From assembly GCF_003018255.1 (NCBI RefSeq), contig NZ_CP027440.1: 64,000 nt of DNA. One strand, 5' to 3'. Made by a program: the position numbers. Shown here piece after piece: positions 20,701 through 22,423 of this stretch (within the stretch, counting starts at the first letter, position 1; the number at the start of each line of letters is the position of its first letter). The stretch is from Escherichia coli. Its GTDB lineage: Bacteria > Pseudomonadota > Gammaproteobacteria > Enterobacterales > Enterobacteriaceae.

Positions 20701-22423
20701 ATGCAGTTGAATGCGCAAGCTGAAAAAGTAGCGAAAATCATCGCCGCAAACAGCAGCAATACATAACAGAAACCTGAAACACAAAACGGCAGCCCTTGAG
20801 CTGTAATGCCGATCAGTTAAGGATCAGTTGACCGATCCAGTGGCTGTGTAAGAATCCGGAAACGCTCACTTGTTTCCGGATTTTTTTATGCACATTGGAC
20901 AGGCTCTTGATCTGGTATCCCGTTACGATTCTCTGCGTAACCCACTGACTTCTCTGGGGGATTACCTCGACCCCGAACTCATCTCTCGTTGCCTTGCCGA
21001 ATCAGGTACTGTAACGCTACGCAAGCGCCGTCTTCCCCTCGAAATGATGGTCTGGTGTATTGTTGGCATGGCGCTTGAGCGTAAAGAACCTCTTCACCAG
21101 ATTGTGAATCGCCTGGACATCATGCTGCCGGGCAATCGCCCCTTCGTTGCCCCCCAGTGCCGTTATTCAGGCCCGCCAGCGCCTGGGAAGTGAGGCTGTC
21201 CGCCGCGTGTTCACGAAAACAGCGCAGCTCTGGCATAACGCCACGCCGCATCCGCACTGGTGCGGCCTGACCCTGCTGGCCATCGATGGTGTGTTCTGGC
21301 GCACACCGGATACACCAGAGAACGATGCAGCCTTCCCCCGCCAGACACATGCCGGGAACCCGGCGCTCTACCCGCAGGTCAAAATGGTCTGCCAGATGGA
21401 ACTGACCAGCCATCTGCTGACGGCTGCAGCCTTCGGCACGATGAAGAACAGCGAAAATGAGCTTGCTGAGCAACTTATAGAACAAACCGGCGATAACACT
21501 CTGACGTTAATGGATAAAGGTTATTACTCACTGGGACTGTTAAATGCCTGGAGCCTGGCGGGAGAACACCGCCACTGGATGATACCTCTCAGAAAGGGAG
21601 CGCAATATGAAGAGATCAGAAAACTGGGTAAAGGCGATCATCTGGTGAAGCTGAAAACCAGCCCGCAGGCACGAAAAAAGTGGCCGGGACTGGGAAATGA
21701 AGTGACAGCCCGCCTGCTGACCGTGACGCGCAAAGGAAAAGTCTGCCATCTGCTGACGTCGATGACGGACGCCATGCGCTTCCCCGGAGGAGAAATGGCG
21801 GATCTGTACAGTCATCGCTGGGAAATCGAACTGGGATACAGGGAGATAAAACAGACGATGCAACTGAGCAGGCTGACGCTGAGAAGTAAAAAGCCGGAGC
21901 TTGTGGAGCAAGAGCTGTGGGGTGTCTTACTGGCTTATAATCTGGTGAGATATCAGATGATTAAAATGGCGGAACATCTGAAAGGTTACTGGCCGAATCA
22001 ACTGAGTTTCTCAGAATCATGCGGAATGGTGATGAGAATGCTGATGACATTGCAGGGCGCTTCACCGGGACGTATACCGGAGCTGATGCGCGATCTTGCA
22101 AGTATGGGACAACTTGTGAAATTACCGACAAGAAGGGAAAGGGCCTTCCCGAGAGTGGTAAAGGAGAGGCCCTGGAAATACCCCACAGCCCCGAAAAAGA
22201 GCCAGTCAGTTGCTTAACTGATCGGCATTACAGCCCTTGAGCTGCCGTTTTTTTATTCTGTTAGTTGTGAAACTGAAGCGATTTAGTCACTATCGATCTC
22301 ATCAAATATGGCTCGCTTTGAGATATTCCTCAAGTAAAAAAACACCTCTTCCTGCGATTTCTCACAAAAAAGATTCGTTGACAAAAAGTGACAAAATTAT
22401 GAGATTTCCATCACACATTTTGA

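Follow-up and report, generated by a model that had tools for sequence, protein, structure and literature searches.

The window analyzed here, a stretch of 64,000 nucleotides from Escherichia coli (contig NZ_CP027440.1), carries a complete IS4 insertion sequence between bamD and raiA (Table 1). The element is delimited at positions 20804 and 22230 by the terminal repeats TAATGCCGATCAGTTAAG, recovered in a repeat search, and its transposase gene, co-oriented with both neighboring genes, falls into 2 overlapping open reading frames (ORFs). The length of 1427 bp, which the initial annotation had placed 1 bp above that of IS4, was borne out by alignment with the 1426-bp K-12-type IS4 of strain 3FA: the window copy has one additional C in a homopolymer run, and the alignment contains 5 substitutions and 1 gap, for an identity of 99.58% across 1427 aligned positions. 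At least 40 RefSeq genomes contain a 100% identical copy of the 1427-bp element.

The window copy combines near-identity to the reference with 18-bp terminal inverted repeats, both of which characterize the IS4 subgroup; the -AATR... end signature of this subgroup is given in Table 1 of PMC2266710. It resembles IS4 of K-12 (insG; IS4 family, IS4 subgroup) in the 18-bp ends, in the succession of Nterm_IS4 and DDE_Tnp_1 domains, in the YREK motif, and in the target, which is a hairpin with AAA...TTT flanks. It differs from the K-12 element in having C6 instead of C5 in the homopolymer run, which breaks the ORF of the window copy, in the match between its terminal repeats (18/18, versus 16/18 in K-12, through a CT to TC change in the right repeat), and in the length of the target duplication (14 bp versus 12 bp). 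The right repeat of the window copy reads TC at 22222-22223, whereas K-12, ECONIH1, NCTC86, elppa5, and CS6L have CT at this place and a 16/18 match. The TC variant, searched for at any locus, is present in 91 complete E. coli genomes, as a single copy in each of them. One may speculate that a change perfecting an imperfect repeat in this manner resembles a template-switch correction.

Table 1. Positions of the IS4 copy, its neighbors, and other features of the window.
Feature	Position	Strand	Description
rrn operon with tRNA-Glu	10024-15039		ordinary landmark
RyfD sRNA	18037-18175		ordinary landmark
bamD	20029..20766	+	intrinsic terminator hairpin is the IS4 target, now split
Left target-site duplication	20790..20803	+	CAGCCCTTGAGCTG, 14 bp
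Complete IS4	20804..22230	+	1427 bp; between bamD and raiA; transposase co-oriented with both
Left terminal inverted repeat (IRL)	20804..20821	+	18 bp, TAATGCCGATCAGTTAAG
Strong hairpin and T7	20850..20887	+	inside the left end of IS4, abutting ATG 20888
Upstream transposase fragment	20888..21193	+	ATG start; 89 native and 12 out-of-frame residues, then stop
Downstream transposase fragment	21147..22217	+	356 aa; native frame from 21156; DDE_Tnp_1 and YREK motif
C6 homopolymer run	21150..21155	+	C5 in reference IS4; the additional C is a frameshift
Right terminal inverted repeat (IRR)	22213..22230	-	18/18 match to IRL
Right target-site duplication	22231..22244	+	CAGCCCTTGAGCTG, 14 bp
raiA	22478..22819	+	247 bp downstream of IS4
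pheA leader	22922-23047		ordinary landmark
Autotransporter adhesin	41328..46031	-	1567 aa; Ag43/AIDA-like passenger and beta-barrel
ORF, 122 aa	46215..46583		no match
YpjC/B-family fragment	47132..47887		within the 41318-52125 segment
CAT-anticodon tRNA	49049-49124		within the 41318-52125 segment
ORF, 750 aa	49682..51934		faint alpha-amylase match

Insertion site and left end of the element

A K-12-type genome with an empty site has a single copy of CAGCCCTTGAGCTG within the terminator hairpin of bamD, AAAACGGCAGCCCTTGAGCTGCCGTTTTTTT. The intact hairpin is predicted to fold with -17.3 kcal/mol (z = -6.2), and the halves into which the insertion splits it are no more stable in the prediction than shuffled sequence. 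The IS4 target consensus is AAA-N20-TTT, and by eye both the bamD site and the K-12 site fit it. Judged against the empty K-12 site, the duplication in the window is 14 bp long, one base past the 10-13 bp described for target duplications of the IS4 subgroup (PMC2266710), and those of the K-12 and NCTC86 copies are 12 bp long.

A second strong hairpin (-22.8 kcal/mol, z = -6.15) lies inside the left end of the element, directly before the canonical start codon, and its left arm is overlapped by a promoter-like site, TTGACC-16-AAGAAT, at 20828-20855. This hairpin looks like a terminator, or like a structure occluding the ribosome-binding site, for transcripts reading into the element. Such a layout would terminate or occlude transcripts arriving from bamD and spare those initiated at the element's own promoter.

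A transposase frame split at six cytosines

At the homopolymer run the window reads gttgCCCCCCagtgcc, with 6 Cs at 21150-21155. The initial annotation had located an extra C in this run, as the sequence and the comparison with reference IS4 both confirm, and had described a transposase divided between 2 ORFs of adjacent frames, 20870..21193 and 21147..22217, an arrangement reproduced in our ORF list, with the overlap of the 2 ORFs spanning the C run. The upstream ORF is 107 aa long when read from a TTG start, as it is both by PGAP and in the ORF list; the canonical ATG lies at 20888. Deletion of one C was likewise said to restore a single frame, and indeed yields an uninterrupted InsG of 442 aa that differs from the K-12 protein at 2 residues.

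The repaired protein matches the Pfam domains Nterm_IS4 (residues 18-109, E = 7.6e-33) and DDE_Tnp_1 (residues 126-352, E = 1.1e-31) and contains the YREK signature, Y(2)R(3)E(6)K, so that it has both the DDE transposase core and the N-terminal domain of IS4. In the window copy the frame is broken after Pro89, within Nterm_IS4, and approximately the last 20 residues of this domain are missing from the upstream fragment. A defining trait of the IS4 family is a transposase encoded in one ORF without a frameshift (PMC2266710), and that of the window copy is split at C6. Judged by its sequence, the window copy is IS4 by descent but presumably non-functional, and the label "non-autonomous" would probably apply to it.

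Two ways in which the separate fragments could retain a role found little support. Independent translation of the downstream ORF was rejected because no Shine-Dalgarno-like sequence precedes its TTG at 21147 (ATGCTGCCGGGCAATCGCCCCTTCG). A split at a domain boundary, after the fashion of InsA of IS1, in which the upstream product would serve as a stand-alone DNA-binding regulator, is weakened by the position of the break, at residue 89 inside a domain extending from residue 18 to 109.

Run length across E. coli genomes

The length of the run was surveyed in 5426 complete E. coli genomes using 30-mer probes in which each 28-base seed word covers the entire run. The C6 probe matched 76 of the 5426 genomes, once in each and always on the chromosome, and the C5 probe 4637 places in 2416 genomes; C4 was found at 18 places in 14 genomes, and a C7 run in none of the 5426. 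By these counts (4637 places with C5 versus 76 with C6), 98% of IS4 copies are unshifted. In the same genome set, the left junction between bamD and IS4 is present in 243 genomes, and the right junction together with the private TC at 22222-22223 in 80.

When a synthetic C5 locus with 100-bp flanks was used as the query, strain FCI1 was a perfect match, and the next 59 matches listed differed from the query solely by a one-base gap. At least 61 C6 copies (those of JNE23-011 and JNE112863 included) reside on the TC haplotype at bamD-raiA, and at most 73, because 3 C6 copies are known outside it. The association between C6 and this haplotype is correspondingly strong, with a Fisher p value of 1e-107 for the lower bound and 1e-149 for the upper. 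A context-driven homopolymer error would ignore locus and haplotype, and C6, confined almost entirely to one haplotype, does not.

C6 outside the haplotype is found in NCTC86, elppa5, and CS6L. In NCTC86 it is an independent frameshift, present with no other indel in an IS4 between silE and copM on a different backbone. That element occupies another hairpin target, has a 12-bp duplication, and adjoins silver and copper resistance genes. The IS4 copies of elppa5 and CS6L have C6 together with other homopolymer indels, and their C6 calls look like assembly noise. Conversely, FCI1, which differs from APEC O2-211 by 5 SNPs in 20 kb, has C5 and an intact annotated transposase amid a C6 clade; this assembly contains 3 other private indels in 25 kb, and its C5 may represent either a revertant or a consensus error.

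The initial annotation had left the choice between true inactivation and a homopolymer error, and inactivation is favored, since C6 recurs at the same site on one haplotype. That the run was lengthened in sequencing or assembly, with C5 and an intact IS4 as the true state, is extremely unlikely. Miscalls of C runs do occur at this place, as in elppa5 and CS6L, and FCI1, with its private indels, interrupts an otherwise C6 clade; moreover, the complete genomes surveyed do not include that of the window itself, their best match to it being 99.8%. Yet at least 59 independent assemblies have C6 at the same locus without any other indel, the 2 closest relatives of the window have C6 as well, approximately 4600 other IS4 copies of identical local sequence read C5, and nearly all C6 copies belong to one haplotype.

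The frameshift is also present in existing annotation. PGAP labels the transposase "frameshifted" in all 5 carrier genomes whose annotation was read, including the loci of 2014C-3338 and strain 104, where IS4 likewise lies between bamD and raiA. The RefSeq entries NZ_CP027452.1 (C6W71_RS16885) and NZ_CP006834.2 (APECO2_RS20430) read "IS4-like element IS4 family transposase, frameshifted", and are identical to the window in element, insertion site, and frameshift; the window differs from them in the flanks outside a shared 7.3-kb block, which represent another chromosomal background. The frameshifted copy is an ordinary pseudogene that is already annotated.

Possible recoding or switching at the run

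A programmed frameshift was considered and rejected, given that 98% of the copies are unshifted and that a single ORF is the hallmark of the family (PMC2266710). One property expected of a recoding site, an in-phase slippery motif, is present: the codons of the upstream frame are GCC (21149-51), CCC (21152-54), and C(21155)AG, which places CCC-C in the zero frame at 21152-21155. Conservation of the shift among functional copies is not found, with 4637 copies having C5 and the 76 copies with C6 belonging essentially to one haplotype. The arrangement is reminiscent of the programmed frameshift of the IS1 and IS3 families, in that 2 ORFs overlap, with the N-terminal DNA-binding part upstream and the catalytic domain downstream. 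In those families, however, a -1 slip on A-rich heptamers is conserved in all functional copies, whereas IS4 of the window would need a +1 slip, and its break lies inside the N-terminal domain and not between domains.

The same motif could nevertheless allow an occasional, unprogrammed shift. Slippage of peptidyl-tRNAPro from CCC at 21152-54 to CCC at 21153-55, followed by AGT, would continue exactly in the native sequence, so that leaky +1 frameshifting at GCC-CCC-C would rebuild the wild-type 442-aa transposase and leave the copy strongly attenuated instead of dead. Motifs of the type CC[C/U]-[C/U] are particularly prone to +1 frameshifting and can yield some read-through; in E. coli, such a motif placed at codon 2 shifts with a frequency of approximately 1%, compared with an average below 0.003% for non-programmed events (PMC4519876). 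We nonetheless consider such leakiness unlikely. CCC-C here occupies codon 89, whereas the shift-prone position is the second codon; no stimulator is evident, neither a Shine-Dalgarno-like sequence upstream nor, with CAG as the following codon, a stop codon or rare codon in the A site; the prevalence of unshifted copies and the single-ORF hallmark of the family (PMC2266710) indicate that the shift is not programmed; and each of the 76 genomes with C6 and of the 91 with TC has just one copy of the variant, even beside other IS4 matches.

The likeness to known CCC-C sites of tRNAPro, which are framed by m1G37/TrmD and EF-P, extends to the exact motif in phase and to a slip that restores the native protein. 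In contrast to those sites, the codon is internal and has no known stimulator, so that slippage here would at best be a low-level error and not a regulatory device. It is improbable, then, that the extra C has made a naturally attenuated IS4 in which traces of transposase arise through +1 slips or through rare reversion from C6 to C5, of which FCI1 would perhaps be a case. Were the copy attenuated in this way, a shortage of m1G37 or EF-P function might raise its output. The product of trmD is the m1G37 methyltransferase, which suppresses +1 slips at CCC-C. The gene lies on the minus strand at 29897-30664, 8.7 kb from the CCC-C site, a coincidence of the map and nothing more.

Slipped-strand mispairing could, finally, turn the run into a reversible on/off switch that alternates between C5 and C6, perhaps with C4 as a third state, and by which the element might be re-activated. 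Homopolymer contingency loci offer a parallel, because the length of a coding run sets the frame and independent length changes are found at the same run. Besides the intact transposase annotated in FCI1, these comprise C6 in NCTC86, C4 in a degenerate IS4 of E2348/69 between adhE and tdk, and C4 in strains 200164 and E04 at bamD-raiA itself, where it is out of frame too. The allele of 200164 and E04, however, is marked by 9 linked SNPs, which are spread over the end of bamD (3') and the beginning of IS4 (5' part), and 4 of these SNPs, together with C4, are shared with the E2348/69 copy; the allele looks like a tract imported by recombination and not like local slippage.

The frequent, reversible change of tract length that defines a contingency locus is not seen in the population: among the 80 genomes of the haplotype, at least 61 have C6 and just 1 has C5, in the FCI1 assembly with its other private indels, and no re-expansion of the haplotype was observed. 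A tract of only 5-6 bases is short for a contingency locus, and about 70 genomes stay at C6 without population-level switching. We therefore regard a switch as very unlikely. A further case of C4 is 14EC007 (NZ_CP024131.1), in which the C4 30-mer has 5 matching places, owing either to multiplication of a frameshifted IS4 in this strain or to an assembly that systematically undercalls the run.

History of the frameshifted copy and its surroundings

Taken together, the window copy is very probably a genuine, vertically inherited IS4 inactivated by a frameshift, an immobile relic that is neither an artifact nor subject to programmed frameshifting. The order of events can be read from strain ECONIH1, which has the same insertion and the same 14-bp duplication, along with C5, a K-12-type right repeat, and an intact annotated transposase; the insertion is therefore older than both the change in the right repeat and the frameshift. 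Two carriers of the bamD-raiA insertion outside the haplotype with C6 and TC were checked, and both have C5.

The closest relatives of the window, JNE23-011 and JNE112863, are 4 SNPs away, have C6, and are annotated as "frameshifted". The window differs from the cluster of APEC O2-211, 2014C-3338, and FCI1 by approximately 150 SNPs over 20 kb, with the rrn operon excluded; APEC O2-211, a carrier of C6, belongs to ST117 (PMC6256689). Despite this distance, no differences separate the window from the ST117-like genomes in a block of 7.3 kb at 18766-26030. The block extends from the 3' end of clpB through tyrA, IS4 included, and its flanks differ by approximately 1-2%. The contrast between block and flanks is a mosaic pattern of the kind left by recombination, and the dead IS4 is common to the 2 chromosomal backgrounds by way of this shared, probably recombined block.

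Mobilization in trans by an intact IS4 was rejected. No second copy with C6 or the TC variant was seen in any of the carrier genomes (76 and 91, respectively), even where there are 4-5 IS4 matches, full-length or partial, as in GPEC464 and GPEC606; the haplotype is single-copy everywhere, and there is therefore no sign of mobilization.

The history of the relic thus began when IS4 inserted once, long ago, into the terminator hairpin of bamD, producing the 14-bp duplication. The C5 run, at codons 88-89, later gained a C in one sub-lineage, likely by replication slippage. Translation now yields 89 native residues and 12 foreign ones before it stops, within the N-terminal IS4 domain, with the DDE catalytic domain in the other frame and devoid of a ribosome-binding site of its own, and activity has presumably been lost. 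The dead element remained fixed at the locus, where it now appears in 2 backgrounds, the ST117-like cluster and the cluster formed by the window, JNE23-011, and JNE112863.

The importance of the copy beyond housekeeping is slight: it should be annotated as a pseudogene, with no "correction" of the run to C5. The junction of bamD, IS4 with C6, and raiA, in combination with the private change in the right repeat, can serve as a lineage marker for the ST117-like and window clusters. More generally, whether a homopolymer frameshift in an insertion sequence is real or an artifact can be decided by tracking haplotypes across independent assemblies.

Elsewhere in the window, none of the 4 ORFs scanned in a 10.8-kb segment at 41318-52125 (the adhesin, the YpjC/B-family fragment, and the ORFs of 750 and 122 aa) gave an integrase match. 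The segment, which is absent from 2014C-3338, begins directly after ssrA (40805-41167).
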